Below are positions 1,178 to 19,937 of a DNA stretch of 32,000 nucleotides, piece by piece. Within the stretch, counting starts at the first letter, position 1. The number at the start of each line of letters is the position of its first letter. The notes beneath the pieces were generated by a model. That model worked only from the letters and a program-made list of their open reading frames with translations. It was not told the DNA's origin and ran no database searches. The stretch is from an uncultured Chloroflexia bacterium (lineage in GTDB: Bacteria; Chloroflexota; Anaerolineae; Anaerolineales; Anaerolineaceae): NCBI GenBank assembly GCA_963704755.1, contig OY969938.1, forward strand, positions 1,080,001-1,112,000, written 5' to 3'. The translations under genes and the position numbers were made by a program.

Positions 1178-2140
1178 GTGAAAACATCTATCAACAAACT
1201 AGCCGTCAAAGTCGTCAAAGAGATCATCGCCCGCGAAGATGAGATTGGTGTCAAAGTCATCCACATGAACTGCGGCGCAACCCTGATCGACATGGGCCTG
1301 AACGTCAAGGGAAGCAACGAAGCCGGGCTCCTCTTTACGCGGGTCACCCTGGGCGACATGGCCACCGTCAACCTGGGCACCTGGAAGCTGGACGACGACT
1401 ACATCTTCGGCTCGGTCGAGCTGTTCGTCACCGAGCCGCTGGTCGCCTGCCTGGCCTCGCAAATCGCCGGCTGGCAACTGGGCAGCGGTGAATTCGCCAC
1501 CATTGGCTCCGGCCCGGCCCGGGCCCAGGCCGTCATTCCCAGCGATTATTACCTGGACATGACCCCCTACCGCGACCGCAACGACGAAGTAGTGCTGTGT
1601 ATCCAGGATATCCGCTATCCGGACGATGCGATCGCCCTGGAAGTGGCCCAGGCCTGCAAAGTGGCGCCCGAAAACGTGTACCTGTTGATTGCACCCAGCG
1701 CCTCGATTGTAGGCTCGATCCAGGTCTCGGCCCGCATGATCGAGGAAGTCTGCCACAAGATGCACGAAAAGGGCTTCGACGTCTCCAAGGTGATCAATGC
1801 CCGCGGCCGCACGCCGGTCGCCCCGCTGGTAATGGACGAGGTCAAGGCCATCGGCCGCATCAATGACGCCATTCTGTACGGCGGCGACACCGAGTTCTGG
1901 GTGGACGCCAGCGACGAAGAAATCGCCGCGGTGGTCGAAAAACTGGTTTCCAAAACGTCATCCCCCTATTACCCCGAGTTGTTCGGGGTGGTGTTCGAGC
2001 GGGCCGGGCGTGACTTTTACAAAATCGATCACGACTTTCACTCCATCGCCAAGATCCAAATCCACAACGTGCGCAGCGGTAAAAGCTTCGTCGCCGGTGA
2101 GATCAATTACGACGTAATCCGCGAAAGCTTCTTGAACTAA
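1178..2140 (+). CDS. Methenyl-H4MPT cyclohydrolase (Mch, PF02289-like) family protein, paralogue 1; physiological substrate unknown
   Basis: 320 aa, the canonical Mch length. It is collinear with Mch as I remember it: N-terminal ...NCGATLIDMG...EAGLLF, GSGPARA, ENVYLLIAPSASIVGSIQVSARMIEE, INDAILYGG, DFYKID, and a C-terminal ...SGKSFVAGEINYDVIRESF. The GTG start lies 12 nt after the SDR stop, with AGGAG upstream. Confidence 0.85.
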   Translation: MKTSINKLAVKVVKEIIAREDEIGVKVIHMNCGATLIDMGLNVKGSNEAGLLFTRVTLGDMATVNLGTWKLDDDYIFGSVELFVTEPLVACLASQIAGWQLGSGEFATIGSGPARAQAVIPSDYYLDMTPYRDRNDEVVLCIQDIRYPDDAIALEVAQACKVAPENVYLLIAPSASIVGSIQVSARMIEEVCHKMHEKGFDVSKVINARGRTPVAPLVMDEVKAIGRINDAILYGGDTEFWVDASDEEIAAVVEKLVSKTSSPYYPELFGVVFERAGRDFYKIDHDFHSIAKIQIHNVRSGKSFVAGEINYDVIRESFLN

Positions 2141-2147
2141 GGCTATC

Positions 2148-2170
2148 TGCCGCATTTTCGCGGCAATTTT
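2148..2170 (+). terminator. Weak candidate intrinsic terminator after Mch-like 1
   Basis: tgccgc/gcggca 6-bp stem (2148-2153 / 2160-2165) followed by aatttt. The stem is short and the T-tract is poor. Confidence 0.3.
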
Positions 2171-2180
2171 AATCATGATA

Positions 2181-2812
2181 TGGATTCCATCAGGAGAAGA
2201 CAGATCAACCACTGATCTACACAGATACACACAGATAAAGAACAAAAGAAAAATATAAAGGTTCTAAAATCTGTGCCCATCCGTGTTCATCTGTGACCAA
2301 TTTGATTGTCCGCAAAAGTAAGCCAGGATTGCAATGGATTCCACATCCGATTGAATTTAGGAGAAGACAGATCAACCACTGATCTACACAGGCAAACACA
2401 GATAAAAAACAATAGAAAAAAAATAATAGGTTTTAAAATCTGTGCCCATCCGTGTTCATCTGTGACCAATTTGATTTTCCGTAAAAGTAAGCCAGGATTG
2501 CAATGGATTCCACATCCGATTGAATTTGGGAGAAGACAGATCAACCACTGATCTACACAGGCAAACACAGATAAAAAACAATAGAAAAAAATTAATAGGT
2601 TTTAAAATCTGTGTCCATCCGTGTTCATCTGTGACCAATTTGATTTTCCGCAAAAGTAAGCCAGTATTGCAATGGATTCCACATCCGATTGAATTTGGGA
2701 GAAGACAGATCAAACACTGATCGACACAGGCAAACACAGATAAAAAACAATAGAAAAAAATTAATGGGTTTTAAAATCTGTGTCCATCCGTGTACATCTG
2801 TGGTTAATAAAT
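2181..2812. repeat. Tandem array of a ~169-bp unit, about 3.8 copies, filling the gap between Mch-like 1 and the E1alpha gene
   Basis: Unit starts (tggattcca...) are at 2181, 2335, 2504 and 2673. Copy 1 carries a ~15-nt deletion and copy 4 is truncated. Copies differ by only a few substitutions. Each unit contains an agatca/tgatct hairpin and cacagat/atctgtg inverted motifs. Confidence 0.92.
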
Positions 2813-2838
2813 AAGCCATTACTGCATAGGAGATTGAG

Positions 2839-3825
2839 ATGGCGCTTTCAAAAGAACGATTACTAAAGGTTTATGAGGACATGGTGCTCATCCGCCGCTT
2901 CGAAGAAGAGGTGGAGAAATACTCCAAGAACGGCACCATCCCCGGCTTCATCCATCTGAGCATCGGCCAGGAAGCGACCCAGGCCGGCATCATCGAAGCC
3001 TTGCGCGAGACCGATTACAAGTTTCCCGATCACCGCAGCCACGGCGCGATTGTGCTCGCCAGCCACCCGGAAAAGCGCAAGAATATTATGGCGGAACTGT
3101 TCGCCAAGAAGACCGGCATCAACGGCGGCCGGGGCGGGTCCATGCACGTCAACGACTTGAGCGTGCGCAATATGGGCTTCAACGCCATCGAAGGCTCGAC
3201 CGTGGTGACCTGCCTGGGTACTGCTTTCGCCTCGGTTTATAACCACACCGACGACGTCACCGCCGTGTTTATGGGCGACGGCACCCTGGGCGAAGGCACC
3301 TGCCACGAGAGTATGAACATGTCGGCTACCTGGAAGCTGCCGGTGCTTTACTGCCTGGTCAACAACCAGTACGCCATTTCGACCCACTACACCAAATCGC
3401 ACCCGCAAAAGCAGTTGGCCACCTGGGCAGACGGCTACGAAGTGTCCAATGAGATCGTGGACGGCAACGACATCGAAGCCGTGATCGATGCGGTCGAGCG
3501 CCACGTCACCCACCTGCGCGCCGGTGAAGGCCCGGCCCTGATCGAGTTCATGACCTACCGCTGGCAAGGCCACTTCTCCGGCGACCCGGCTGCCTACCGG
3601 CCGGAAGGTGAACTGGAAAAATGGAAAGAAAAAGACCCGATTAAAGTTACCCGCGAACGCCTGGCCGGCCAACATGGCGTCAGCGATGCGGAATTCGAAC
3701 AGATCCACGCCCGGGTTGAAACCGAGATAGCCGAATACATTCAATTTGCGCTGGAAAGCCCCAGCCCAGACCCGGAAGATGCACTCAAGCACGTTTATAT
3801 GGATATTGAGGTGGAGGGAAGATAA
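2839..3825 (+). CDS. Thiamine-diphosphate-dependent 2-oxoacid/acetoin dehydrogenase E1 alpha subunit (AcoA/PdhA type)
   Basis: The IRRFEE...GFIHLSIGQEA, GGRGGSMH and GDG...NN ThDP-binding pattern is typical of E1alpha. AGGAG RBS. The stop overlaps the next start (TAATG). Confidence 0.9.
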   Translation: MALSKERLLKVYEDMVLIRRFEEEVEKYSKNGTIPGFIHLSIGQEATQAGIIEALRETDYKFPDHRSHGAIVLASHPEKRKNIMAELFAKKTGINGGRGGSMHVNDLSVRNMGFNAIEGSTVVTCLGTAFASVYNHTDDVTAVFMGDGTLGEGTCHESMNMSATWKLPVLYCLVNNQYAISTHYTKSHPQKQLATWADGYEVSNEIVDGNDIEAVIDAVERHVTHLRAGEGPALIEFMTYRWQGHFSGDPAAYRPEGELEKWKEKDPIKVTRERLAGQHGVSDAEFEQIHARVETEIAEYIQFALESPSPDPEDALKHVYMDIEVEGR

Positions 3826-4803
3826 TGTCCAGGACACTTACTTTTTCGAAAGCCATCAACGAAGCGCTCCATCAAGAGATGGAACGGGATGAGAAAGTTT
3901 TTATCCTGGGGGAAGACGTGGCCAAAATGGGCGGCGACTTTGGCATCACCAGCGGCATCTGGAACCGCTGGCCCAAACGCGCCTACGATACTGCCTTATC
4001 CGAATCCGCCATCATCGGGCTCTCCTGCGGTGCAGCCGTGTGCGGCCTGCGCCCGGTAGCCGAGCTGATGTTCGCCGACTTCATCGGGGTGTGCTATGAC
4101 CAGATCATCAACAACGCCGCCAAGTTGTGCTACATGTACAACGGCCAGGCCAGCGCCCAGATCGTTGTGCGGGCCGTCACCGGCGGCGGCATCCGCTGCG
4201 CCTACCAGCACTCGCAGTGCATCGAGCCCTGGCTGATGAATATCCCCGGCCTGGTGGTCGTTGCCCCAGCCACGCCCTACGAAGCCAAAGGCCTGCTGGT
4301 ATCCGCCATCCGCAGCAACAACCCGGTCATCTTCCTGGAACACAAGGGCCTGTACAACACCAAAGGGGATGTGCCCGAAGAGCTGTACAGCCTGCCGCTT
4401 TATAAAGCCAACGTCGAGCGTGAGGGTACGGACATTACTTTAGTAGCCAGCATGTCCATGCTCAGCTTTGCCAAAAAAGCCGCCCAGGAATTGGAGAAAG
4501 ACGGTTTCTCCTGCGAGATTATCAACCCGCGGAACTCTCTTCCCCCTGGATAAAGAAACCATTATCAATTCCGTCGCCAAAACCGGCCGCCTGGTTATCG
4601 TCCAGGAAGGGCCTAAATTTATGGGCTACGGCGCCGAAATCGGCAGCATGATCTCTGAAGACGTGTTCGAATACCTGAAAGCCCCCATCCGCCGGGTAAC
4701 CTCGCTGGATACCCCCGTGCCATTCGCCCCGGTGATGGAAGATTATGTACTGCCCCATTATGATGATGTACTCAAAGCATGCCGCGAAGTAATGGCTTTT
4801 TGA
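3825..4803 (+). pseudogene. E1 beta subunit of the same complex, split by a +1 frameshift (a true pseudogene, a slippage variant or an assembly error)
   Basis: ORF 3825-4553 ends ...FSCEIINPRNSLPPG*. ORF 4468-4803 in the next frame continues ...TLFPLDKETIINSVAKTGRLVIVQEG.... Together they form a normal ~325-aa E1beta with the canonical (D/N)xR-xxx-PLD junction. One extra base lies between ~4533 and 4547, and a C5 run sits at 4542-4546. Confidence 0.8.
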
Positions 4804-4822
4804 ACCAAGGAAGGAGCTCGTT

Positions 4823-6061
4823 ATGGCCCACACGATAGTAATGCCAAGATTCGGAGCGACCATGGAGGAAGGCACCATCAACTCCTGGTCGGTCAAGGAA
4901 GGGGCCGTCATTAAAAAAGGCGACCTGCTGGGAGAAATCGCCATCGAAAAATTGACCAATGACCTGTTGGCCGAAGAAGACGGGATCGTTTTAAAACTCA
5001 TCGCCGATGAGGGTGACACGCTGCCCTGCGGCGCTCCCATTTTGGTCGTAGGTGAGCCGGGCGAAAGCCTGGATGACCTAGCGCCCGAACCCGCCGCAGA
5101 ACAAACGCCTGCGCCAACCCGGGTTGAGGTGGTGGCAGCCCCGGCGGCAATCGCTGCCGAAAGCGCTCAAGCCCCTGCAGGCGACTATGACAAATCAGCC
5201 CGCATCACCCCCAAAGCGCTCGAACTGGCCGAAGAATTAGGCATCGATTATCACTACGTCAAAGGAACCGGCCGTTTAGGCGCAATTACCCGCGAGGATA
5301 TCCGCGGCGCGCTCGAAACCGGCACAGCCCGCAAAGTCGCCGCGCCCGTCGCCAGCGCTCCGCTGGCCAGTGAAACGCGCGTCATGACCCAAATGCAGAC
5401 CACCATCGCCAGCGCAATGGAAGCCAGCCTCAAAAACACGGCCCAGACGACCATCTCGACCGACCTGGACGCCACCGCTATGGTCCAGGCCTACCAGGCT
5501 CACAAGGAAGAATATCGCCGCAGCGGGATCAAACTGACCTACACGGCCATCCTGGTCAAGCTGGTCGCCGCGGCTTTGATCGAACACAAAGACCTGCGCA
5601 CGGTCATCCAGGGTAATAGCCTGGTCACCCATGCCGAGATCAACATCGGCATCGCCGTGGACGTGCCGGATGGGTTGATGGTTCCCAACATCAAAAACGT
5701 GGACCGCAAAGACCTGCGCCAGATCGCGCAAGAGCTGGAAGACCTGGGGAACCGGGCCAGGAGCAATGCGCTCGGCCTGGACGACATCACCGGCGGCACC
5801 CTCACCATCACCAACCTGGGCATGTACGGCATCAAGTACTTTACCCCGGTGCTCAACCCCGGCGAAAGTGGTATTCTGGGAGTTGGCGCCGTACAAGACG
5901 TCGTCAGCGTGCGGGATGGCGGTATCTTCGTCAAACCGGTCGTCAATATCAGCCTGACCCACGATCACCGCGTGGTCAACGGCGCGCCGGCAGCTCGTTT
6001 CTTGCAAACCATCCAGCAAAAAATGATGGAATGCGCCACTTTATTCAACGACCAGGAATAG
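4823..6061 (+). CDS. Dihydrolipoamide acyltransferase E2 (lipoyl domain + peripheral-subunit-binding domain + catalytic domain; AcoC-like)
   Basis: N-terminal lipoyl domain with the lipoyl-Lys in GEIAIEKLTNDL (EK as in AcoC-type E2s, from memory). Ala/Pro linker. PSBD (ITPKALELAEELGIDYHYVKGTGRLGAITREDI). Catalytic LTHDHRVVNGA motif. Confidence 0.9.
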   Translation: MAHTIVMPRFGATMEEGTINSWSVKEGAVIKKGDLLGEIAIEKLTNDLLAEEDGIVLKLIADEGDTLPCGAPILVVGEPGESLDDLAPEPAAEQTPAPTRVEVVAAPAAIAAESAQAPAGDYDKSARITPKALELAEELGIDYHYVKGTGRLGAITREDIRGALETGTARKVAAPVASAPLASETRVMTQMQTTIASAMEASLKNTAQTTISTDLDATAMVQAYQAHKEEYRRSGIKLTYTAILVKLVAAALIEHKDLRTVIQGNSLVTHAEINIGIAVDVPDGLMVPNIKNVDRKDLRQIAQELEDLGNRARSNALGLDDITGGTLTITNLGMYGIKYFTPVLNPGESGILGVGAVQDVVSVRDGGIFVKPVVNISLTHDHRVVNGAPAARFLQTIQQKMMECATLFNDQE

Positions 6062-6068: not shown

Positions 6069-7031
6069 ATGATTAGCCTCAACAAGAACGTAATGCCTAA
6101 AGTCCACTACCTGATCGAGCATGCCGAACAGCTCGGCTGCCGCCACTTTTGCCTGGAGAATGGTACACATGTGATCGATATGGGCATCGAGCAAAAAGGC
6201 AGCTTCGAAGCCGGCAAACTCTTTGCCGAAATCAGCATGGCCGACCTGGGAAGCTGCCAGTTTACTACTTACGTCTTGCCCGGAGACATTTCGGTTATGG
6301 CCGTGGAAGTGTTCACGTCCGAGCCGGTGTTGGCCTGCCTGTGCAGCCAGATCGCCGGCTACCCGCTCTCCAGTGGGTCGTTTTCCACCATCGGTTCCGG
6401 CCCGGCCCGGGCCAAAGCTGCCCTGGCCCGCGATCACTGCTTCGAATATACCGATTACCGCGACGATTCTGACGAAGTGGTCATTGGCATCCAATCCACC
6501 AAACTGCCGGACGAAGTCATGGCCAACCAGGTAGCGCGTGAGTGCCAGGTCAAGCCGGAAGATGTTTATTTCCTGGCTCACCGCACCAACAGCATCGTTG
6601 CCTCGGTGCAGGTTTCGGCCCGCATCCTGGAACAGACCATCAACAAGATGATCAAAAAAGGCTTCGACCTGAACACGCTGCAATACGCACGCGGATTTTG
6701 CATGGTCGCCCCGGTTGACCTGGATCCCGAAGCCGCTATGGGTAAGATCAACGACTGCCTGCTGTACGGCGGCCGTTCGGAATTCTGGGTGAAGTGGGAA
6801 GACCAGAAAATCGATGAGATTTTACCCAAGCTGGTGACCGAATCGTCCAAAGACTACGGGCGCCTGTTCAAAGAGCTGTTCATCGAGGCCGAGCACGATT
6901 TCTACAAGATGGACCTGGATATCCACTCCCCCGCCACCGTGCAGATTGTGAATATGAATACCGGTAAACTGCACAAGGCCGGCCGCTTGCGCGAAGACCT
7001 GATCGCCAAAAGCTTTTTCGGCATCGAGTAA
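6069..7031 (+). CDS. Mch-family cyclohydrolase-like protein, paralogue 2
   Basis: 320 aa. GSGPARA, EDVYFLAHRTNSIVASVQVSARILEQ, INDCLLYGG, DFYKMD and a C-terminal TGKLHKAGRLREDLIAKSF. The start is 7 nt after the E2 stop, so it belongs to the same operon. Confidence 0.85.
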   Translation: MISLNKNVMPKVHYLIEHAEQLGCRHFCLENGTHVIDMGIEQKGSFEAGKLFAEISMADLGSCQFTTYVLPGDISVMAVEVFTSEPVLACLCSQIAGYPLSSGSFSTIGSGPARAKAALARDHCFEYTDYRDDSDEVVIGIQSTKLPDEVMANQVARECQVKPEDVYFLAHRTNSIVASVQVSARILEQTINKMIKKGFDLNTLQYARGFCMVAPVDLDPEAAMGKINDCLLYGGRSEFWVKWEDQKIDEILPKLVTESSKDYGRLFKELFIEAEHDFYKMDLDIHSPATVQIVNMNTGKLHKAGRLREDLIAKSFFGIE

Positions 7032-7040
7032 GGAAAGAGA

Positions 7041-7465
7041 TTCACCGCAGAGGCGCGGAGAGCACAGAGAAGAGAAAGAAACTAAGAAAAACTGTTGGGC
7101 GAAAGGGCAATAGCCTAAAGCAGTTCGGCCCGGTCTCCTGACCGAGGCCGCTCTTCAACCCAGTCAATTAATTCGCCGCAGAGGCGCGGAGTTCACAGAG
7201 AAGAGAAAGAAACTAAGAAAAACTGTTGGGCGAAAGGGCAATAGCCTAAAGCAGATCGGCCCGGTCTCCTGACCGAGGCCGCTCTTCAACCAGTCAATTA
7301 ATTCACCGCAGAGGCGCGGAGCGCACAGAGAAGAGAAAGAAACCAAGAAAAACTGTTGGGCGAAAGGGCAATAGCCTAAAGCAGTTCGGCCCGGTCTCCT
7401 GACCGAGGCCGCTCTTCAACCCAGTCAATTAATTCACCGCAGAGGCGCGGAGTTCACAGAGAAGA
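7041..7465. repeat. Tandem array of a ~131-bp unit (3 full copies plus a ~33-nt partial copy) downstream of Mch-like 2
   Basis: ttc(a/g)ccgcagaggcgcggag starts at 7041, 7172, 7302 and 7433 (periods 131/130/131). Copies are near-identical. The last partial copy pairs with an inverted imperfect copy (ctgtgatcttcgcgcct, ~7470-7488). Confidence 0.92.
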
Positions 7466-7789: not shown

Positions 7790-8806
7790 ATGATTTACAT
7801 AGAGACGGGCTCAAGCTCTCCGCAGGTCAACCTGGCCTTTGAGGAGTATTTTCTCAAAACCAGGGCGCTGGGAGAGGACATCCTCATGCTCTGGCAGGAT
7901 GAACCGGCCGTCGTCGTTGGCCGGTTCCAGAACACGCTGGAAGAAATCGACCCGGATTATGTGCAAACCCATACCATCCCGGTGATTCGCCGCATCAGCG
8001 GCGGTGGAGCTGTGTATCACGACCCGGGCAACCTGTGTTTCAGTTTCATTTTCCAGGGCCTGCCTCCCCTGGCCATCGACCGGCCCAAGTTTGCCCGCCC
8101 CCTGGTCGAAGCCCTGGCACACATCGGCCTGAAGCCCGAACTAACCCCGCGCAGCGATATGTTGATCGACGGGAAGAAATTTTCGGGCAATGCCATGGCG
8201 CTGCACAAAGACCGCCTGCTTTATCACGGCACCTTGTTGTTCGATTCGGATCTGGATATCCTCCGGCGCGTGTTGCATGCACCGGCCGGGCAAGTCGAAT
8301 CGAAAGGGGTCAAATCAGTCCACGCCGGGGTAACCAACTTGCGGCCTTACCTGCCGGTAGAAATGGACCTGGAACATTTCAAAGCCGCTATGAAGAACCA
8401 GCTCTTGAGCGGCGGTCCCTGGAGCCCATACAGCCCGACCGCGGACGACCTGGCCGCCATCCGTGACCTGGTGGAAAGCAAGTACCTCTCTTGGGATTGG
8501 AATTTCGGCAATAATCCACACTGTATCGTCTCGCGCAGCGGCCATTACTCCGACGGGACCATCGAAATTCAATTCGAACTGGAAAAGGGACGGTTCAAAG
8601 ACTGTCATTTCAGCGCTGACCTGGCCGGAGCCAGCCAGATCGACGTGGTGGCCCGGAAGCTGAACGGCTTACGGTTCGAAGCCGGCGACATTCGCCTCGC
8701 CCTGGCCGGCCTGGAAGGCCCGGCGTACTTTGGGCCATTTCACAAAGAAGAGGTTATCCGCTGTTTATTGGGGGTTATCAATAATTCCGGAATTTCCTCC
8801 CTTTAG
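7790..8806 (+). CDS. lplA: Lipoate-protein ligase A
   Basis: GRFQN, RRISGGGAVYHDPGN and GKKFSGNA (lipoyl-AMP lysine region), plus a C-terminal accessory domain. 338 aa, the typical LplA length. Confidence 0.85.
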   Translation: MIYIETGSSSPQVNLAFEEYFLKTRALGEDILMLWQDEPAVVVGRFQNTLEEIDPDYVQTHTIPVIRRISGGGAVYHDPGNLCFSFIFQGLPPLAIDRPKFARPLVEALAHIGLKPELTPRSDMLIDGKKFSGNAMALHKDRLLYHGTLLFDSDLDILRRVLHAPAGQVESKGVKSVHAGVTNLRPYLPVEMDLEHFKAAMKNQLLSGGPWSPYSPTADDLAAIRDLVESKYLSWDWNFGNNPHCIVSRSGHYSDGTIEIQFELEKGRFKDCHFSADLAGASQIDVVARKLNGLRFEAGDIRLALAGLEGPAYFGPFHKEEVIRCLLGVINNSGISSL

Positions 8807-9610: not shown

Positions 9611-10993
9611 ATGAGCTACGATCTGGTCATCAAAGAAGGCACCCTGGTCACGAGCGACGGGGTTTACCAGGCCGACCTGGCCGTTCAGGGTGAGAAAATT
9701 GCCGCCGTCGGCAGCGGGCTGGCCGGCCGACAAGAGATTTCGGCCGCGGGTAAGCTGGTTCTGCCCGGCGGAGTGGACCCGCACGTCCACCTGGAAATGC
9801 CCACCGCGGTCACCGTCACCAGCGACGATTGGCAAACCGGCTCGAAGGCGGCCGCCTTTGGCGGCACCACCACCGTGATCGATTTTATCGAACCGGGCTA
9901 TGAACACCAGCCCCTGCTGGAAGCCTTCCAGGATTATTTGAACAAAGCCCAGGGCCGCTCGAGCATCGATTTCAGCTTCCACATGACGCTTTGCGATGCC
10001 AGGGCAGACACGCTCGAGCAGGTCCCAGGTGTGGTCGCGGCCGGCTTGCCCTCGTTCAAAGTGTATACCACCTATCCCGGCTTTCACCTGAGCGACGAAG
10101 AACTGCTGGCAGCTTTGCATGCCGCCGCCCAGGCCCACGCTCTGGTCCTGGTCCATTCCGAATCGGACGCCATCCTTCAATCCGAGGTGGATAAACTGCG
10201 CCAGGCCGGGCGCCTGGCCGTCAGCGATTTTCCCGGCAGCCGCCCCGCCCTGGCCGAAAAAGAAGCCATCCAGCGCGTCCTCACTTTAGCTGACTATGCG
10301 AAGTCCGCTGTTTATATTGTCCACGTTTCCACCGCCGCCGGCGCAGCAGCGATCCGGCAGGCTCGCCGGCAAGGCCAGGCCGCCTGGGGTGAAACCTGCC
10401 CCCAGTACCTGCTGCTGGACGAAAGCAAGTTGAAGACCGGCGGTTTCGAAGGCGCTAAATTCGTTTGCAGCCCGCCCCTGCGCCTGCCGCAGTACCAGCA
10501 GGCCCTGTGGACTGCCCTGCAAGAGAACGGTTTGCAAACGGTCGGCACCGATCACTGCGCCTTCAATTTCGTCGGCCAGAAAGACCTGGGAAAAGATTCT
10601 TTCCTGGACATTCCCTCGGGTTTACCGGGGATCGAGCTGCGGCTGGCCCTTTTGTACACCTACGGGGTCAAACCCGGCCGTATCGGCCTCGAACAGTGGG
10701 TCGAGCGCTGCTGTACGGCCCCTGCACGCCTTTTTGGCCTCTATCCGCGCAAAGGTGCCCTGGTTCCTGGGGCAGATGCGGATGTGGTCCTGTTCGATCC
10801 GCAGCGCTCCCAGCCGGTCAGCCGGGCGATCCTGCACGAAAACGTAGATTACACCCCTTACGAAGGGCTGCAACTAGCCGGCAAAGTGACCGATACATTT
10901 TTACGCGGCCAGCCGCTGGTGCGCGACGAGCGCTGGGTCGCCGGGCCGGCCGGCGGCGTTTTTCTGCCCGGCACACCCTTTCAAGCTGGATAA
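9611..10993 (+). CDS. Cyclic amidohydrolase: D-hydantoinase/dihydropyrimidinase (HyuA/Dht-like)
   Basis: GGVDPHVHL metal site, SFKVY (carboxylated Lys), VHSE, HVST and GTDHC. 460 aa. The start abuts the regulator stop (TAAATG). Confidence 0.9.
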   Translation: MSYDLVIKEGTLVTSDGVYQADLAVQGEKIAAVGSGLAGRQEISAAGKLVLPGGVDPHVHLEMPTAVTVTSDDWQTGSKAAAFGGTTTVIDFIEPGYEHQPLLEAFQDYLNKAQGRSSIDFSFHMTLCDARADTLEQVPGVVAAGLPSFKVYTTYPGFHLSDEELLAALHAAAQAHALVLVHSESDAILQSEVDKLRQAGRLAVSDFPGSRPALAEKEAIQRVLTLADYAKSAVYIVHVSTAAGAAAIRQARRQGQAAWGETCPQYLLLDESKLKTGGFEGAKFVCSPPLRLPQYQQALWTALQENGLQTVGTDHCAFNFVGQKDLGKDSFLDIPSGLPGIELRLALLYTYGVKPGRIGLEQWVERCCTAPARLFGLYPRKGALVPGADADVVLFDPQRSQPVSRAILHENVDYTPYEGLQLAGKVTDTFLRGQPLVRDERWVAGPAGGVFLPGTPFQAG

Positions 10994-12185: not shown

Positions 12186-13379
12186 GTGCAAACATACGAC
12201 GTCATCGTAATTGGAGGGGGATTCCTGGGCGTTGCTACAGCTTACGAGCTCGCCAAAACCGGCACGCGCACCCTTCTGCTGGAGGCTGGCGACCTGGGCA
12301 GCGGCACATCCGGTTCCTGTTCCGGCCGGGCCCAGGTATGCGAAGGGCATCTGGACCCCCTGAACATCGCCCTGATCCGCGGCGGGCTTGAAAAACACGA
12401 AACCCTGCCAGAAGAATTAGGCTGCGATTACGAATGGCACCGCGCCAGCCTGCTCCTGTTATTACGCAGCGAGCGGCTGCGCCAACAGTGGCTGGAACGC
12501 TCGGTTTTTCTGACCGAAGCCGGCATCCCTACCGAGGTGATCGACCGCGACAGTTTGCAGAAAGCCGAACCGCACCTGGACACAAGTACCTTACTGGGTG
12601 CTGCACACGCCATTGAAGGCAAGCTGAACCCCCTCAAGTTCGTCCAGGCTTATGGCGGGGCTGCCACCCGCCTGGGGGCAGACCTGCGGCGTAACGCCGC
12701 CGTCACCGGCATGGAAGTCTCCAACGGCCGCATCACCAGCGTAAAGACGGCCACCGAGACGTTTTCGGCCGGCACGGTGGCCGTGATGGCCGGCGCCTGG
12801 GAACCGGTCATCACCCGCATGGCCGGTGTGGAAGTGCCCATCCGCCACACCCACGCCGAATCGTTCATCACCGAGCCGATCCCGCCCATGATTTTCAACA
12901 ACATCGACCTGGCCGACAGCTACGAGATTATTCACGGCAAGCTGAAGGCGGTCACCATCGGCATTCACCCCGAGCCGAACGGCAGCCTGTCCATCGCCGA
13001 ATCGGTCACCCGCACCACCGAGCTGCACCACCGGGTCAGCTCGTGGAGCATCGCGGCCATGGCCAAAGAAATGGTCAAACTGTACCCCTTCCTGGAAAAA
13101 GTGCGCGTCATCCGCAGTTGGGGCCGGCCAACCTCCTTCACCCCGGACGAAGAGCCCCTGGTCGGCTGGGTGCCGCAACTGGAGAACCTGTACGTGGCTA
13201 CCAGCCTGATGGAAACCATCACCGTCGTCCCGCTGCTGTGCGAATGGATGGCCATGATGATCCGCGGCCAGAAGCCGCCCATGGATCTGGATCTATTTGC
13301 CCCGGCTCGTTTCCCCGAAAATTATCCATTCCCCGAAGATTCCGCTCCGCAGGCCAGGACCATCGATCATGCGAATTAA
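12186..13379 (+). CDS. FAD-dependent oxidoreductase, DAO family (beta/catalytic subunit of an HcnC / OoxB / sarcosine-oxidase-beta-like enzyme)
   Basis: N-terminal YDVIVIGGGFLGVATAYELAK dinucleotide fold. ~397 aa. GTG start with GGAGGG upstream. Confidence 0.85.
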   Translation: MQTYDVIVIGGGFLGVATAYELAKTGTRTLLLEAGDLGSGTSGSCSGRAQVCEGHLDPLNIALIRGGLEKHETLPEELGCDYEWHRASLLLLLRSERLRQQWLERSVFLTEAGIPTEVIDRDSLQKAEPHLDTSTLLGAAHAIEGKLNPLKFVQAYGGAATRLGADLRRNAAVTGMEVSNGRITSVKTATETFSAGTVAVMAGAWEPVITRMAGVEVPIRHTHAESFITEPIPPMIFNNIDLADSYEIIHGKLKAVTIGIHPEPNGSLSIAESVTRTTELHHRVSSWSIAAMAKEMVKLYPFLEKVRVIRSWGRPTSFTPDEEPLVGWVPQLENLYVATSLMETITVVPLLCEWMAMMIRGQKPPMDLDLFAPARFPENYPFPEDSAPQARTIDHAN

Positions 13380-13674
13380 TCCCTCCAACTCACTCTTACC
13401 AGAAATTCAAAGGGGCAAAACCGTACAAATTACGGTAGACGGCCGGCCGGTAGAGGCTTTCGAAGGCGAGACTATCGCCGCCGTTCTGCTGGCCCTGGGC
13501 ATCTGGGCCTTCCGCCACAGCCCAAAGAACAAAGAAGAGCGTGGCATTTACTGCGGTATGGGTATTTGCTACGAATGCCTGGTGACCGTGGATGGCATCC
13601 ACGCCGTGCGGGCTTGCGTCACTCCCGTGGCGGACGGCATGCAGGTGGATACCTGCCAGGAGATGGCATTATGA
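13369..13674 (+). CDS. Small (2Fe-2S)-binding subunit (HcnA / Fer2_4-like)
   Basis: VDGRPVEAFEGETIAAVL...CGMGICYECLV...AC cysteine pattern. The ATG at 13369 overlaps the preceding gene by 11 nt. The longer ORF-track start at 13297 lies inside the preceding gene. Confidence 0.75.
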   Translation: MRINPSNSLLPEIQRGKTVQITVDGRPVEAFEGETIAAVLLALGIWAFRHSPKNKEERGIYCGMGICYECLVTVDGIHAVRACVTPVADGMQVDTCQEMAL

Positions 13675-15086
13675 GCGAAACCTGCCAACTCGCCGTCATT
13701 GGAGCCGGCCCGGCCGGCCTGGAAGCCGCCATTGCTGCCGCCGAAGCGGGCGTAGATACGATCCTCATCGACAGCGCTCTGCGGGCAGGCGGCCAATATT
13801 ACAAACCCCTGCCGGCCGCTTTCCGGCCCCTGCGCCAAACCGGGACGGAAAAGGAAGGCGAAAGCCTGGTCGCCCGGCTGGAACGTAGCGGCGCCAAACG
13901 GATCTACGACGCCCTCACCTGGGGGCTGTTCACCGAAGAAGATGGGAACGGCTACCGGCTGTGCCTGTCGGTGGCCGGCTCGCCCCGCCAGATCCACGCG
14001 GACCGGCTGGTCCTGGCCGGCGGCGCCTACGATACCCCCCTGGCTTTCCCGGGCTGGACCCTGCCGGGCGTATTAACCTGCGGCGCCGCCCTGAACCTGC
14101 TCAAGAACCAGCGCGTCGCGCCTTTCAAGCGGGTGCTGGTCAGCGGGACCGGGCCGCTCTCGCTCTCGGTCGCGGCCCACCTGGTCGCCGCCGGCGTCGA
14201 GGTTGCCTGCCTGTGCGAAGCCAACCACATTCCGTTGAGCGCAGCCGGCTATGGCCCGCAAATGTTAGGGCATGGACACCGCATCACCGAGGGCATTCAA
14301 TATGTCTCTACGCTCATCGGCGGGGGCACGCGCGTCCGCATGGGCTGGTCGGTCGTCGAAGCGCGCGGAAAAGAGCGCGTCGATCAGGCCGTCATCGCAA
14401 AGCTGGATAATTCCGGCGCTCCCATTCCCGGCAGCGAGCAGGTCCTTGCAGTAGATGCCGTCATCTGCGGCTTTGGGCTCACCCCCAACAACGGCATGGC
14501 CCGCATGCTTGGCTGTCAATTCGCAGTGGACCCCGCCAATGGAGAATGGGTTCCCCGGCGCGACGGCCGCATGCAGACCAGTTTACCGGGAGTGTACATG
14601 GCCGGCGATTGCGTCCAGATCAACGGCGCCGAGAACGCGCGCCTGGAAGGGCGCCTGGCCGGCACCGCGGCCGCCCTGGACTGCCAGCGCATCTCCCCCG
14701 CCCAGGCGGACCACACTTTCGCCCAGATCCAGCCGGCCTTGAGCCGCCAGCAGCGCTACGGGCGCATGCTGGCCAAACTGTTCCCGCTTAAAGCGGGCCT
14801 GCGCACCCTGGCTCACGACGAGACCTACGTCTGCCGCTGCGAAGAAGTGACCCAGGGCATGGTCAAAGCCGCCATCGCCGCCGGGGCAACCACGATCGGT
14901 GAGGTCAAGATGGTCACCCGGGTGGGAATGGGCAACTGCCAGGGCCGCATTTGCGAACAGACCATCGCCCGCATCATCGCTCAGGAACTTTCCAGCGATC
15001 CAGCTTCTGCCGGCATGTACACCATCCGCCCACCCCTGCACCCCCTGCCGATCGGCTTCTTCGCCAAAGATGAGCAGGAAATTTAA
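13671..15086 (+). CDS. FAD/NAD(P)-binding oxidoreductase subunit with a C-terminal BFD-like [2Fe-2S] domain (HcnB / OoxA-like alpha subunit)
   Basis: LAVIGAGPAGLEAA, a second Rossmann fold (VLVSGTGPLSL), GDC, and a C-terminal CRCEEVT...GNCQGRIC. ATGA overlap with the upstream stop. Confidence 0.85.
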   Translation: MSETCQLAVIGAGPAGLEAAIAAAEAGVDTILIDSALRAGGQYYKPLPAAFRPLRQTGTEKEGESLVARLERSGAKRIYDALTWGLFTEEDGNGYRLCLSVAGSPRQIHADRLVLAGGAYDTPLAFPGWTLPGVLTCGAALNLLKNQRVAPFKRVLVSGTGPLSLSVAAHLVAAGVEVACLCEANHIPLSAAGYGPQMLGHGHRITEGIQYVSTLIGGGTRVRMGWSVVEARGKERVDQAVIAKLDNSGAPIPGSEQVLAVDAVICGFGLTPNNGMARMLGCQFAVDPANGEWVPRRDGRMQTSLPGVYMAGDCVQINGAENARLEGRLAGTAAALDCQRISPAQADHTFAQIQPALSRQQRYGRMLAKLFPLKAGLRTLAHDETYVCRCEEVTQGMVKAAIAAGATTIGEVKMVTRVGMGNCQGRICEQTIARIIAQELSSDPASAGMYTIRPPLHPLPIGFFAKDEQEI

Positions 15087-15109
15087 CTACTCAGCCACCG
15101 CAAAAGAGT

Positions 15110-15258: not shown

Positions 15259-15287
15259 TTGACAAAACAGTCATATTAGGGTAATAT
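15259..15287 (+). promoter_or_regulatory. Near-consensus sigma-70-type promoter
   Basis: TTGACA (15259-15264), 17 nt, TAATAT (15282-15287). A second TTGACA sits 7 nt upstream (15252-15257, the direct repeat attgacaattgaca). Confidence 0.55.
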
Positions 15288-15294
15288 ACACATG

Positions 15295-15536
15295 TATTCA
15301 CATCCTGATGTCCGCCAGGACGTCGGTAAAACCCCACAACGAACACCCTCTGGTCCCCTCATACCCAGAGCTGGGTCGTGGCCAGGCAATCGCCTGGCTG
15401 CGCCGAAATTATCCATAGTGTTTCCGCGAATTACACACAACGGGCACAGGATCTTTATTCGTATTTTACCGGTACGGGGTTTTACCGACAAACAGTACTT
15501 CTCATCCAACAATCCCAATGCAGGAGAATAGATTCC
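15295..15536 (+). promoter_or_regulatory. Long candidate 5' leader with a closing long-range helix (possible cis-regulatory RNA)
   Basis: gtcggtaaaacccc (15322-15335) is the perfect complement of ggggttttaccgac (15476-15489). An alternative partner, ttttaccg, lies at 15464-15471. Internal hairpins include gccagg-caatcg-cctggc and ctctgg...ccagag. ORFs here have no recognisable protein features. Confidence 0.3.
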
Positions 15537-16337
15537 ATGGAATACACCGGGTACCTTGATTTCTGGTTCACCGACCGGCCCATGGTCGAACGGATAGAGC
15601 CGATGGTAAAACTCGGCTTTCGCCATTTAGACGTGTGGTCCTGGCGCCAGCAGCCCATGGCCGAACTGGCCGCCGAATGCCGCCGCCTGGGCGCAGTGCT
15701 TAACTCCGTCTTCGATGACCACATGGGCAACCTGGCCGACCCGAACGATAACGAGCTGACTTTACGCACCTGGTCCGAGAGCCTGGAAATGGCTACCCGC
15801 TTTGGCGTCGAGCACCTCTTCCTGTTTTCCAACCAGGTGGACCTGATCGACGGGCATACCTGGACCCGGCGCCTTTCCTCCAATTTCACTGAAGCCGAGC
15901 AATACGCCAATACGCTCAAGCAGACCGAAAAGATCCTCAAGCTGGCCGAGCGAACCTCCGTCAAAGTTTGGATCGAAGCGCTGAATGAGTTTCACATCAA
16001 GGGCGGCGTGCTGGTTCACAACCACGAGATGGCCGCGGATTGGGTGCGCCGCATCGACCACCCGCAGTTGCGCATGGTCTTCGACTGCTATCACCAACAG
16101 CGCGGTTCCGGTGACCTGATCTGGGGCCTGGAACAATATGCCGGCCTGTACGAGGCCGTCCACATTGCCGACGTACCCACCCGCCAGGAGCCCGGCACGG
16201 GTGAAATCAACTTCACCAATATCCACAAAAAGCTGGTGGAATTGAACTACGACGGCTTTATCGGACTCGAATTCTACCCATCCACCAACGAAGCCGAAGC
16301 GCTGGAAACTGTAAAAAAGATCATGCCGCTCGGCTGA
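15537..16337 (+). CDS. Xylose-isomerase-like TIM-barrel protein, hydroxypyruvate isomerase (Hyi/OtnI) family
   Basis: The C-terminal block [13 protein letters not shown]...[19 protein letters not shown]...[11 protein letters not shown] matches the Hyi pattern (YDIYH...[15 protein letters not shown]...Y.GW.G.EY.P) as I recall it. ATG at 15537 after AGGAG. Confidence 0.8.
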
Positions 16338-16362
16338 GCCGGCCAGAAAAGGAAGAGCAGCC

Positions 16363-17160
16363 ATGCCGATTCGCAGGCTCAACCATATTTTCAAAGCGGA
16401 TGGACGCGCGCTAATCGTCGCCTTTGACCACGGCCTGACCGAAGGCCCGACCAAGGGCATGGAGAACGCCGGCGAGACCCTCGAAAAAATCGCAAACGGC
16501 GGCGCAGACGCCATTCTGACCAGTTACGGTGTGGCCAGCCGCTTCGCCCGGCAAATTTCCGGCCTGGGGTTGATCCTGCGCCTGGATGTCGGCGGCACCA
16601 AAATCGGCAAGATGGGCCCCGGCAAACCGTTTTTCAGCGTGGAAGATGCCTTGCGCCTGGGCGCCGACGCCGTCGCCGTTTCCGCTTTCCCGGGTACGCC
16701 CCAGGAATCCGAGACGATGCAGACCTTGGCCCACACCATTGGCGCAGCCCATCCCTGGGGCATGCCGGTCATGGCCGAGATGCAGCCGGGTGGCTTCGAT
16801 GCCGGCCCGGAATACAATACGGCCGAGAACATCGCCATTTCCGCCCGGGTTGCCGCCGAACTGGGCGCCGACTGGGTTAAAGTGCCGTTCGTTAAGGCCT
16901 TCGACCAGGTCGTACGGTCATGTTACGTCCCGGCGGTCATGTTGGGCGGGGTGAAAGTCAACGACGAAAGCCTCTTGCTCGAAATGGTCTGGGGCGCAGT
17001 AGCTTCAGGCGCGGCCGGGGTAGCCATCGGGCGCAATATTTTCCAGGCCGAAGACCCCCAGGCGATCGTCACCGCCATTAGCGCGATCCTGCACCAGGGC
17101 GCCAGTGTGGACCAGGCCGTCGAGATCTACCGCCAGCACCACGCCGGCCAGAAACACTGA
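16363..17160 (+). CDS. Class I aldolase of the DeoC/FbaB (DhnA, LsrF, ADH-synthase) family
   Basis: LIVAFDHG, a Schiff-base lysine context DWVKVPF, and [10 protein letters not shown] at the C-terminus. 265 aa. Confidence 0.85.
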
Positions 17161-17181
17161 GAGCCTATCTAAAAAATATTT

Positions 17182-17230
17182 TTCAGGTATTTATTTTGGG
17201 AGGCAAAACCGCCCAAAATAAATACCTGAA
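17182..17230. repeat. AT-rich palindrome with a 19-bp perfect stem between the aldolase and kinase genes
   Basis: ttcaggtatttattttggg (17182-17200) is the exact reverse complement of 17212-17230. Confidence 0.85.
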
Positions 17231-17278
17231 GCGATTTACGGATAGAACCTGAACCACACCAATGCGGAGCCTGACTGA

Positions 17279-18787: not shown

Positions 18788-18839
18788 ACCCCCTTTCGTA
18801 ACCCGCTGGTGTACATGCAATTTTCGTGTTTATTGTCAG

Positions 18840-18868
18840 TTGACGTTAATCCCTCGGTTCGCTATAAT
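18840..18868 (+). promoter_or_regulatory. Near-consensus sigma-70-type promoter for the Mch-like 3 operon
   Basis: TTGACG (18840-18845), 17 nt, TATAAT (18863-18868), about 90 nt upstream of the ATG at 18960. Confidence 0.6.
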
Positions 18869-18959
18869 GACTGAAGAGCCGTTGTAGCGGAGCCCCATCA
18901 TTGGTTTCACAATTACGTTCCAGGCTTAAACCCCCAATCACATTCCATAAGGAGAAAAC

Positions 18960-19937
18960 ATGCAAGGCTATAGTCTCAATCATACTGCGGTTGGGATCAT
19001 CAAAGATGCGATTACCAGGGCTGACGAATTTCAGATCCGCTCATGGCGCGCCGAGTGTGGTAGTACCCTGGTCGATATGGGTTTGACCTGTCCGGGAAGT
19101 TGGAAAGCCGGCCAGGCTTTCGTCGAAGCAGGTTTTGGCGGGATGGGCAAGGCCACCTACGGCAAGTTCGATATCGGCCCCTTCACCGTACCCTCCATCG
19201 ACGTATGGGTGGATCACCCGGTTTTAGCCGTGGTGGCCTCTCAGGCTGGCTGCTGGGAGTTAGGTTCAGGCGAACTGGCCGAGATCGGTTCCGGCCCTGC
19301 CCGGGCCGTGGCCCTGGCCGATCGCTGGGCCGGGCACGGTTACCGCGACCCCGATCCGAGTGAAGTCGTCGTCCAACTCCAGACCCACCGGGTGCCTTCC
19401 GATGATCTCTGCCGGGCCGTGGCGGATGCCTGCCACCTGCCGCCGGAGAAAGTGTACGTCGTGTTTGCGCCCACTGCTTGCCTGGTAGGCGCTATCCAGG
19501 TGGCCTCCCGCACGGTAGAACAGGTCATGATCAAGCTGTTCATGCGCGGTTTCGACATTCACAGCGTGAAATATGGCTTTGGCACTGCCCCGGTCGCCCC
19601 GCTGGTCAACGACGAAGCCGAGGTTATGGGCCGCGCCAACGACGCCCTCTTCTACGGCGCCACCACCGTGTTGTACGCCGATGTACCCGATGAAACTATT
19701 AGTGCCATCATCAACAACTTCTGCTTCGACGTCAACTCGGGTGAATTCTGGGGCACGCCGTTCGCCTCCATCTTCGACCATTTCCATCACAACTGGTTCG
19801 AAGTGCCCGACCTGGTCAACTCACCCGCCAAGGTGATCATCAACAGCCTACAAACCGGGCATTCTTTCGTCGGTGGACAGATCAACCGGGAAGTTCTGGC
19901 ACGCTCCTACTTCGGTTACGATCTGACCGCCAAATAA
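18960..19937 (+). CDS. Mch-family cyclohydrolase-like protein, paralogue 3
   Basis: 325 aa. GSGPARA, EKVYVVFAPTACLVGAIQVASRTVEQ, ANDALFYGA and a C-terminal TGHSFVGGQINREVLARSYFG. AAGGAG RBS 5 nt upstream. Confidence 0.85.
   Translation: MQGYSLNHTAVGIIKDAITRADEFQIRSWRAECGSTLVDMGLTCPGSWKAGQAFVEAGFGGMGKATYGKFDIGPFTVPSIDVWVDHPVLAVVASQAGCWELGSGELAEIGSGPARAVALADRWAGHGYRDPDPSEVVVQLQTHRVPSDDLCRAVADACHLPPEKVYVVFAPTACLVGAIQVASRTVEQVMIKLFMRGFDIHSVKYGFGTAPVAPLVNDEAEVMGRANDALFYGATTVLYADVPDETISAIINNFCFDVNSGEFWGTPFASIFDHFHHNWFEVPDLVNSPAKVIINSLQTGHSFVGGQINREVLARSYFGYDLTAK

Follow-up and report, generated by a model that had tools for sequence, protein, structure and literature searches.

Three Divergent Mch-Family Paralogs in a Conserved, Probably Catabolic Gene Cluster of an Uncultured Chloroflexia Bacterium

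Introduction

This study concerns a 32,000-nucleotide stretch of contig OY969938.1 (GenBank assembly GCA_963704755.1, positions 1,080,001 to 1,112,000 of the forward strand), hereafter the window, from an uncultured Chloroflexia bacterium of the Anaerolineaceae. It contains three genes of the methenyl-tetrahydromethanopterin (methenyl-H4MPT) cyclohydrolase family, Mch, named here Mch1, Mch2, and Mch3. An initial annotation of the window had suggested that they might open the rings of cyclic amidine or pterin-like intermediates, and this proposal fitted everything found in the present analysis. Mch1–3 are probably catabolic hydrolases that do not use H4MPT and that act on cationic cyclic amidine or imine rings in anaerobic purine or pteridine breakdown, the substrate being suggested by gene context.

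Mch hydrates the cationic amidinium carbon on N5 of a tetrahydropterin, a nitrogen that is itself attached to the pyrimidine ring at C4a. To our knowledge, this is the only reaction known for the Mch fold.

Among described catabolic systems, the reductive urate pathway comprises XdhD, YgfK/UacX, SsnA, HyuA, YgeW/UacY, YgeY, and YgeX (Li et al., 2025, PMC12507026). The same study reported SsnA neighborhoods in Chloroflexota that were without YgfK/UacX and contained a putative F420-dependent luciferase-family (PF00296) enzyme instead. Mch was mentioned neither there nor in a second report (Liu et al., 2025, bioRxiv; Dodd lab). No description of Mch homologs in catabolic clusters was found in the literature, where subscription journals were thinly covered and an earlier report is possible.

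Family Membership, Fold, and Catalytic Residues

The window contained 81 open reading frames (ORFs) of at least 100 aa, and nearly all plausible genes were on the + strand. The three Mch genes were full length and located as the initial annotation had given them (residue numbering here and throughout is that of A. fulgidus Mch):

1178..2140, +, Mch1 (paralog 1; clade A, Q140/H280); PF02289 E 6.5e-104, 347.9 bits; TIGR03120 317.5 bits
6069..7031, +, Mch2 (paralog 2; clade B, Q140/H280); PF02289 E 9.1e-103, 344.2 bits; TIGR03120 312.3 bits
18960..19937, +, Mch3 (paralog 3; clade C, Q140/N280); PF02289 E 2.1e-85, 287.1 bits; TIGR03120 257.9 bits

Each protein spanned the whole PF02289 profile (1–311 of 311; curated cut-off 25 bits) and also exceeded the cut-off of TIGR03120, the NCBIfam equivalog (228.8 bits). 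Because their pairwise identities were only 31–45% (45% for Mch1/Mch2, 39% for Mch1/Mch3, and 31% for Mch2/Mch3), they were old paralogs and not recent duplicates, as had been proposed.

The only solved relatives by sequence were the Mch of M. kandleri (1QLM), that of A. fulgidus (4GVQ/4GVR/4GVS), and 4FIO, named by the fold search as Methanobrevibacter ruminantium. The window proteins aligned with these collinearly over their full length and were 34–50% identical to M. kandleri Mch. Mch3 was the most divergent of the three, and its AlphaFold2 model had a pLDDT of 93.1 and a pTM of 0.92. In Foldseek this model matched 1QLM, 4GVQ, and 4FIO with TM-scores of 0.90–0.92 and root-mean-square deviations of 2.0–2.4 Å; it showed the two-domain alpha/beta fold of Mch, and no other fold in the PDB was close. 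The fold of Mch1 and Mch2 was judged from sequence only.

The shared motifs noted in the initial annotation (IGSGPARA, the QV..R..E block, and NDxxxYG) were present in all three proteins, but the first position of the block was Cys in Mch3 instead of Ser/Thr. DFYK(I/M)D was indeed confined to Mch1 and Mch2. The Glu of the R-x-x-E segment was kept in all three and aligned with E186, which is the sole difference between PDB 4GVQ and the mutant 4GVR (RIVE vs. RIVQ, E186Q). This Glu is said to have been described as the general base of Mch by Upadhyay and colleagues in 2012. Both catalytic residues, Arg183 and Glu186, were found in Mch1, Mch2, and Mch3 and in all five clades described below. The window proteins also kept Q93, GP110-111, R113, and ND226-227 of canonical Mch, whereas K94 of archaeal Mch was replaced by I/A in proteins of the window type.

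Phylogeny and Signature Residues

An exhaustive profile search for the Mch family gave 1,549 representatives at E ≤1e-3. An alignment and tree (n = 174) were made from 150 of these, the Mch ORFs of the related loci that were fetched, and the PDB sequences. In the neighbor-joining (NJ) tree, Mch1, Mch2, and Mch3 fell into separate clades A, B, and C, beside which stood two further cluster-associated clades, D and E. Clades A–E were set apart from the archaeal sequences (1QLM, 4GVQ, and Methanobacterium) and from a planctomycete Mch. The window proteins thus lay outside canonical Mch: they are non-canonical members of the family and belong to a set of at least five paralogous clades distinct from the archaeal and planctomycete enzymes.

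The canonical invariants Q93, S109-G110-P111, R113, Q179, R183, E186, N226-D227, F261, and G299 were retained in every clade. Two positions differed. Residue 140 was Glu in 91% of the canonical group and Gln in 100% of clades A–E. Residue 280 was Phe in 93% of the canonical group and His in clades A, B, and D, while Asp predominated in clades C and E and Mch3 had Asn; the residues at 140/280 were therefore Q/H in Mch1 and Mch2 and Q/N in Mch3. E140 was combined with F280 in 92 sequences, among them all those known to be archaeal or planctomycete, and Q140 with H/D/N280 in 64 sequences of the cluster type. When columns 140 and 280 were dropped, a bipartition matching both sets (Jaccard ≥0.9) was still recovered in 99 of 100 bootstrap NJ trees.

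Degenerate extra Mch-like ORFs were observed at two Clostridia loci, L012 (16588-...) and L013 (10561-...; loci are cited by number where needed), in which R183/E186 were lost. At L006 (1223-1948), of the Clostridia/Christensenellaceae cluster set, an Mch-like ORF was cut to 241 aa and matched PF02289 faintly. These ORFs may be pseudo-enzymes or accessory subunits.

A Conserved Supercluster in Three Phyla

Thirty-seven related loci, reaching 10 kb either side of each Mch match, were fetched, and window-gene homologs were mapped and counted over 28 non-redundant bacterial ones; 11 related loci were annotated with Pfam. The genes at the Mch1/Mch2 end of the window were as follows:

41..358, +, GntR-family regulator, C-terminal FCD domain, start upstream of the window; PF07729 E 1.9e-8
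396..1166, +, short-chain dehydrogenase/reductase (SDR), tightly coupled to Mch1; PF00106 E 6e-61
2839..3825, +, E1 alpha of a thiamine-pyrophosphate-dependent 2-oxoacid/acetoin-type dehydrogenase; PF00676 E 4.7e-70
3825..4803, +, E1 beta, frameshifted (ORFs 3825-4553 and 4468-4803); PF02779, PF02780
4823..6061, +, E2 lipoyl-acyltransferase; Biotin_lipoyl, E3_binding, and 2-oxoacid_dh domains
7790..8806, +, LplA lipoate-protein ligase; PF21948 E 7.6e-63, PF10437; recurs in 5 loci

The tight couplings of the initial annotation were both present: Mch1 starts at 1178 after the SDR stop at 1166, and Mch2 at 6069 after the E2 stop at 6061. The SDR passed no specific NCBIfam equivalog, and E1 alpha scored 317 bits against PDH_E1_alph_y, under the cut-off of 394. 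The full 229-aa GntR+FCD gene was found in L001, and it was conserved upstream of SDR-Mch in eight loci. A RibD_C-like protein and a COG0402 amidohydrolase were encoded just upstream of the window, as seen in a contig identical over the Mch1 region.

The 28 loci came from Chloroflexota, Clostridia, and Spirochaetia and formed one supercluster. Its core order was (Rib7-like reductase, COG0402 amidohydrolase, GntR) SDR-MchA-E1ab-E2-MchB, where MchA, MchB, and MchC denote members of clades A, B, and C. Frequent additions were a Bmp-type ABC transporter, an opine-oxidase-like flavoenzyme, and an isomerase/aldolase/kinase module followed by MchC; others were a Mo hydroxylase, a Mer-like luciferase-family protein (LLM), a carbamoyltransferase, and YgeY. 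E1 alpha and E2 were each found in 22 of the loci and an SDR directly upstream of a clade-A Mch in 19. The ABC transporter occurred in 17 and its Bmp/PnrA-family binding protein (PF02608) in 15, while the upstream-type COG0402 amidohydrolase and a clade-B Mch after E2 were present in 10 each, the latter spanning three phyla. Less frequent were the DAO oxidase and a 2-hydroxyacid dehydrogenase (eight each), the RibD_C-like protein and an FMN reductase (six each), and the Mo hydroxylase (five).

Homologs of Mch1 were 54–94% identical, with source names including Anaerolineaceae, Clostridia, Bacillota, Christensenellaceae, and Spirochaetia; its orthologs in Chloroflexota, Clostridia, and Spirochaetia showed 55–94% identity. 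One isolate, Pseudoflavonifractor sp. 524-17, had SDR-Mch-E1-E2 at loci L015 and L018. Those Mch3-type homologs (≥51% identical) that had a source name were all Chloroflexi, and clade C was seen only in Chloroflexota. Exactly the same order, SDR-MchA-E1ab-E2-MchB, was shared by Chloroflexota, Clostridia (CP069393), and a metagenome-assembled genome (MAG) of Spirochaetia, so that the arrangement recurs in Clostridia and Spirochaetia and is not peculiar to this genome. In the latter two groups, a single cluster had as many as four or five copies of Mch. Both these multiple copies and the shared gene order of the orthologous clades A and B across three phyla imply non-redundant functions. The window type differed from canonical Mch in being multi-copy, in its place within catabolic operons beside genes for an SDR, E1/E2, DAO, and a sugar kinase, and in being carried by non-methylotrophic anaerobes.

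The following genes preceded Mch3:

12186..13379, +, DAO-family FAD amine oxidoreductase (SoxB/OoxB/HcnC-like); PF01266 E 6.5e-50
13566..15086, +, Pyr_redox_2 + BFD [2Fe-2S] + SO_alpha_A3 subunit (OoxA/HcnB/SoxA-N-like); accompanies DAO in 7 loci
15378..16337, +, xylose-isomerase-like TIM-barrel protein (hydroxypyruvate or oxo-tetronate isomerase-like); PF01261
16363..17160, +, DeoC/LacD-family class I aldolase (ADH-synthase/LsrF-like); PF01791
17279..18787, +, FGGY sugar kinase (xylulokinase-like); FGGY_N, FGGY_C; XylB 287 bits vs. cut-off 380

Specific models were missed here as well: the DAO protein scored 104 bits as soxB-like, far under the cut-off, the isomerase matches to TIGR03234 and NF043033 were both under cut-off, and the aldolase reached 226 bits against NF005556 (cut-off 241) and 180 bits against the LsrF model. 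The FGGY kinase gene and Mch3 are separated by 172 nt, and an SsnA-like gene begins 76 nt beyond Mch3; a near-consensus sigma70-like site stands ahead of Mch3 at 18840-18868.

According to the initial annotation, each Mch copy was coupled to a different partner. Each copy does have its own, but these were not independent operons: they were modules of one conserved supercluster, which was contiguous in a related chromosome of 5.37 Mb (OY969772.1). There, the order was Mo hydroxylase (MoCo), LLM (91% identical to that of the window), carbamoyltransferase (OTC), M20 hydrolase, amidohydrolase, isomerase, aldolase, kinase, and Mch3; next came the DAO protein with its Fe-S/flavoprotein subunits, the Bmp ABC transporter, and GntR, SDR, Mch1, E1, E2, and Mch2. 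Mch3, likewise, precedes the SsnA-like and Mo genes to which it had been tied, but it was at least as closely tied to the upstream isomerase-aldolase-kinase module and the DAO-type oxidase. Its orthologs followed isomerase-aldolase-kinase in L024, L025, and L038, with the FGGY kinase immediately upstream in these same loci, and clade-C Mch adjoined DAO in L029, L036, and L037. Isomerase orthologs (71–80% identity) were found upstream of Mch3 in L024, L029, L037, and L038.

This conservation bears on the possibility that the three genes are decaying or redundant duplicates without a specific role, in a neighborhood that is coincidental. A frameshift in E1 beta, tandem repeats that interrupt the operon in this genome, and the degenerate copies without R183/E186 in L012 and L013 would fit such decay. 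However, all three ORFs were intact and full length with their catalytic residues, and for each copy, orthologs in conserved order were present in numerous genomes of up to three phyla; a frameshift was also present in FGGY of a related long-contig MAG (L038), which suggests assembly errors. Since both genes and order were conserved, decay was largely refuted, and we regard it as very improbable.

The E1 beta break was located near 4465-4553 by tblastn with an intact 325-aa ortholog, of which residues 1–240 matched in one frame and 214–325 in another; its orthologs were single 325-aa ORFs. An assembly indel is as likely here as a pseudogene, because FGGY was similarly split in L038.

Two AT-rich intergenic tandem arrays were observed beside the Mch genes. 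One, at 2192-2802 between Mch1 and E1 alpha, had a 169-nt unit in 3.6 copies with 95% matches; orthologous loci have just ~20 nt at this site. The other, at 7040-7465 between Mch2 and LplA, had a 131-nt unit in 3.3 copies (95%). Neither had an Rfam match, and the repeat unit had no significant RNA fold (z = -0.58).

The Mer-Like Protein and a Possible C1-Cofactor Role

The initial annotation had stated that no other gene of the H4MPT C1 pathway was nearby. This was correct for fae, mtd, ftr, and fhc, but it needs qualifying, because a protein whose closest matches were Mer is encoded 4.4 kb downstream of Mch3:

24343..25401, +, Mer-like LLM, putatively F420-dependent oxidoreductase; PF00296

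Its best NCBIfam matches were Mer models, both under cut-off (NF002619, 156 bits vs. 276; TIGR03555, 154 bits vs. 349), and its six best PDB matches were all Mer (E 5e-35 to 2e-24). In contrast to Mer, it belonged to a highly conserved clade and adjoined Xdh/OTC/YgeY genes; more than 120 protein clusters were ≥84% identical, and their named members were Chloroflexi. It co-occurred with Mch3 in related genomes; contigs of 20251, 745168, 120107, 26833, 46698, 62777, and 167204 nt appeared in both the LLM and the Mch3/Mch1 homolog lists.

The homologs of this LLM were 339 aa long against 352 aa for the called ORF, and its true start is likely later. In JGI annotations the protein is called 5,10-methylenetetrahydromethanopterin reductase, probably a further misannotation.

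The alternative to be weighed is that Mch1–3 are true cyclohydrolases of a C1 cofactor. In that role, they would interconvert methenyl and formyl groups on H4MPT or tetrahydrofolate (THF) and handle formyl, formimino, or methylene units from the breakdown of a heterocycle or an N-methyl-amine, with the SDR as an analog of the methylene dehydrogenase and the LLM as an analog of Mer. Several observations fit it and thereby weigh against ring hydrolysis in catabolism. As the equivalog cut-off was passed by all three proteins and almost all canonical invariants, including the catalytic residues, were kept, the proteins may be active on methenyl-H4MPT or methenyl-THF. The Mer-like LLM near the Mch genes suits a C1-cofactor role as well, and so do folate-type genes in some loci (FTCD_C in L036 and the folate-binding GCV_T protein in L038) and the sarcosine-oxidase-like DAO/Pyr_redox/SO_alpha_A3 system. 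The tree was distance-based only (NJ), and the E1/E2 complex could simply be pyruvate dehydrogenase. The literature offers precedents, too: haloarchaea carry mch and mer homologs though listed as not using methanopterin, and H4MPT-linked genes have been reported for some Firmicutes and Chloroflexi.

On the other hand, one cofactor reaction would not require three to five divergent, orthologously conserved paralogs in each cluster, and the non-redundant functions that they imply are unexpected for a single cofactor-bound C1 unit. The clade-wide E140Q and F280H/D/N distinguished them from all Mch whose origin is known. Neither the window nor the 11 Pfam-annotated loci (10 kb either side) contained a member of the Fae, Mtd, Ftr/Fhc, FolD, or Fhs families, and no gene of H4MPT biosynthesis was found in this range. 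Two of the paralogs are embedded around lipoyl E1/E2, which has no role in C1-cofactor chemistry, and the gut and digester Clostridia, Spirochaetia, and Anaerolineae that carry the clusters are not known as H4MPT users. The handling of C1 units, which the initial annotation had offered as its own alternative, was therefore weakened, and we consider it unlikely.

Comparison with Known Pathways

The families of the neighboring genes and the related loci agreed that the context of Mch1–3 is catabolic and N-heterocycle-related. Genes with counterparts in the urate pathway were the following:

9611..10993, +, D-hydantoinase/dihydropyrimidinase; TIGR02033 487.7 bits, above cut-off 393
20014..21336, +, SsnA-like COG0402 amidohydrolase; best NCBIfam match SsnA, 272 bits vs. 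cut-off 444
21254..21880, +, Mo hydroxylase [2Fe-2S] small subunit; Fer2, Fer2_2; XdhC_XDHase 163 bits vs. cut-off 217
21772..24210, +, molybdopterin hydroxylase large subunit (PucD/XdhA-like); MoCoBD_1, MoCoBD_2, Ald_Xan_dh_C
25653..26738, +, carbamoyltransferase (OTC/AOTC-like; only distantly YgeW-like); OTCace_N, OTCace
26738..27883, +, YgeY-family M20 hydrolase; NF009555 404 bits, above cut-off 321

The part of the window at 20–28 kb resembles the Chloroflexota variant of the reductive uric-acid cluster. Genes reminiscent of the reductive uric-acid/2,8-dioxopurine cluster were those for the SsnA-like protein, the Mo enzyme of Xdh-like type, the hydantoinase, the carbamoyltransferase, and the YgeY-family hydrolase, in addition to the PF00296 reductase. 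However, its SsnA, Xdh, and YgeW homologs were all under the equivalog cut-offs. The Mo large subunit scored 530 bits against pucD (cut-off 784), 508 bits as XdhA-like (also below cut-off), and 273 bits against TIGR03313 (cut-off 1102), a model for the Mo/Fe-S-binding subunit of a molybdopterin-dependent oxidoreductase that we take to cover XdhD; the window had no FAD subunit for this enzyme. The carbamoyltransferase reached 275 bits against AOTCase (cut-off 288) and 223 bits against YgeW (cut-off 453), and the PDB relatives of the SsnA-like protein were deaminases. The hydantoinase, the counterpart of HyuA, passed its model; it lies 9 kb from the SsnA-like gene and has its own regulator. YgfK/UacX was absent from the window, as was YgeX (no PALP-family gene in the window). 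Mch, the SDR, E1/E2, the DAO/HcnB-like proteins, and the sugar modules have no place in the published pathway.

The called [2Fe-2S] ORF has 83 nt in common with the SsnA-like gene and 109 nt with the Mo subunit, and the true start codons of the [2Fe-2S] and Mo subunit genes are probably further downstream than in the called ORFs.

Enzymes of other folds carry out like chemistry. In GTP cyclohydrolase I/II/III, IMP cyclohydrolase, and FolD/FchA, the formamidine carbon that bridges two ring nitrogens is hydrated to give an N-formyl product. Their folds are unrelated to that of Mch, several are metal-dependent, they are biosynthetic and not catabolic, and they showed no homology to the window proteins. 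The neighboring Rib7-like reductase and deaminase parallel the steps after GTP cyclohydrolase II/III in riboflavin synthesis.

A precedent for a pair of SDR and hydrolase is provided by phloroglucinol reductase and dihydrophloroglucinol cyclohydrolase, in which an SDR dearomatizes the ring and the adjacent "cyclohydrolase" opens it (PMC10470551). As a relative of Mch the latter was ruled out, being an Mn-dependent enzyme of the "cyclase" family that cleaves C-C and not C-N (PMC10470551). Pathways of the ectoine, histidine, and riboflavin-lyase types were set aside, their hallmark genes being absent.

Substrate Hints

Accessory genes of the other loci point to planar N-heterocycles, pteridines or purines. 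The only PDB relatives of the RibD_C-like protein were the group of 5XUX, which is probably M. mazei Rib7. Solved relatives of the upstream-type COG0402 amidohydrolases included 8-oxoguanine, methylthioadenosine/S-adenosylhomocysteine (MTA/SAH), and guanine deaminases, atrazine chlorohydrolase, and 2PAJ. Those nearest to the Bmp binding proteins were 3S99, the atrazine-binding AtzT, and "Lbp" (Bmp lipoproteins). A FolB gene was located inside the SDR-Mch-E1-E2 operon of L032 (764-3892), flanked by Fe-ADH and aldehyde dehydrogenase, and another lay near L002 (6277-6654). The arrangement in L032 hints that a neopterin-type side chain is removed as glycolaldehyde. Pterin_bind proteins were found in L002 and L033, FTCD_C in L036, and GCV_T in L038; like FolB, the RibD_C-like fold, and the Mer-like LLM, these belong to families that bind pterins or purines. 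Rfam searches at gathering thresholds on the window and 12 related loci revealed only two tRNAs and no riboswitch that would name the ligand.

Genes of the URO-D family (MT2-like) in L033 and L037 and the Pterin_bind gene in L033 adjoin the cluster (L033 5401-6564 and 19764-20579; L037 2466-3527) in loci of Spirochaetia and Chloroflexi. Corrinoid/THF-dependent demethylation of methylated heterocycles is possible at these two loci.

These hints also bear on a further explanation, in which the cluster would scavenge or degrade archaeal cofactors (methanopterin, F420) from co-resident methanogens, its Mch- and Mer-like enzymes keeping their affinity for the methanopterin head group. The co-occurrence of such proteins, a DeoC-like aldolase nearest to archaeal ADH synthase, and carriers from the habitats of methanogens (anaerobic digesters, sediments, and guts) fit this, and the SDR with an acetoin-type E1/E2 could conceivably strip methyl-branched C6/C7 side carbons. 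However, an unchanged head group leaves the clade-wide E140Q and F280H/D unexplained, the SsnA-like, OTC, and YgeY genes indicate ureido chemistry of the purine type, and the nearest solved relatives of the Bmp proteins were AtzT and other Bmp lipoproteins, none of which is named for large cofactors. We consider scavenging quite improbable.

Proposed Mechanism

Under the favored explanation, catabolic ring hydrolysis, the Mch-fold enzymes appear catalytically competent from their sequences and would open or close rings of N-heterocycle intermediates. By analogy with Mch, the conserved E186 would activate water for attack on a cationic amidinium or iminium carbon. That carbon would be bonded to a nitrogen on pyrimidine C5, which in a reduced pteridine is N5 and in a reduced purine N7. 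Arg183 would stabilize the oxyanion, and the product would be an N-formyl or N-acyl compound or a ring-opened amino-carbonyl compound. Dihydropteridines would offer the same local geometry in their N5=C6 iminium, and a purine with C4=C5 reduced and C8 unsubstituted would do so in its N7-C8-N9 amidinium; a third case would be six-membered formamidines (C2-H purines) after reduction.

Because the catalytic and most pocket residues were kept, two positions were switched clade-wide, and three to five paralogs were conserved per cluster, each paralog may open a different cyclic amidine or imine intermediate. The SDR, through a dearomatizing reduction or side-chain oxidation, may feed MchA. The lipoyl E1/E2 complex, with C-C cleavage of the acetoin/pyruvate type to acyl-CoA, would precede MchB. 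The partners of MchC would be the C-N oxidase of the DAO/HcnB-like type and the module of pentulose-type isomerase, kinase, and aldolase. Candidates for the remaining steps are the Bmp-type ABC transporter for uptake; the Mer-like LLM, the Rib7/DHFR-fold reductase, and the FMN reductase for reduction or dearomatization; the COG0402 amidohydrolase for deamination; and the Mo hydroxylase for hydroxylation. The residual ureido skeleton might be dismantled by the SsnA-like protein, hydantoinase, carbamoyltransferase, and YgeY. We infer this chemistry, the order of the steps, and the substrate class, which would comprise pteridines (for example, neopterin, biopterin, or lumazine), purine bases or nucleosides, or both.

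A broader proposal can be put forward only tentatively: Mch of the Q140/H280 type may be a new branch of the Mch fold, consisting of cyclic amidinium/imine hydrolases, that marks a multi-phylum anaerobic pathway dismantling pteridines and/or C8-/C2-unsubstituted purines. Such a pathway would combine several Mch-type ring openings with C-C cleavage by lipoyl E1/E2, C-N oxidation by an amadoriase-like enzyme, and a pentulose module, and would in effect be the chemistry of GTP cyclohydrolase I/II in reverse.

Implications

The finding is best classed as an undescribed functional variant of a known enzyme family, in a pathway that is partly described (the urate variant) and partly undescribed. Source annotations of JGI and NCBI call these proteins methenyl-H4MPT cyclohydrolase. 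Together with the equivalog pass, this name can lead to their being miscounted as markers of methanogenesis or methylotrophy in gut, digester, and sediment metagenomes. The present results flag a systematic annotation error for a large bacterial Mch clade, and showing that this clade is something else would correct such counts. A second reaction of the Mch fold would be new. The anaerobic fates of pterins, and of purines not first oxidized to urate, are poorly known, and the reductive urate pathway has been noted to have a Chloroflexota variant that is unexplained. The cluster offers a concrete gene set, which can be tested through its three to five hydrolases, E1/E2 complex, binding protein, and regulators, which occur at 28 loci in three phyla, cultivable gut Clostridia included.

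Other Features of the Window

Two regulators were found near the hydantoinase gene, orthologs of which (67% identity) occurred in L008 and L022:

9020..9610, +, HTH-cupin regulator; HTH_3, Cupin_2; homologs in L009, L023, and L036
11333..11911, +, second HTH-cupin regulator; HTH_3, Cupin_2

The only large gene on the minus strand, at 29322-31859, encoded an 845-aa protein in which a DhaM-like EIIA domain and HPr are fused to a complete enzyme I of the phosphotransferase system (PTS). Such a fusion would donate phosphoryl groups to dihydroxyacetone kinase, no gene for which was present in the window.

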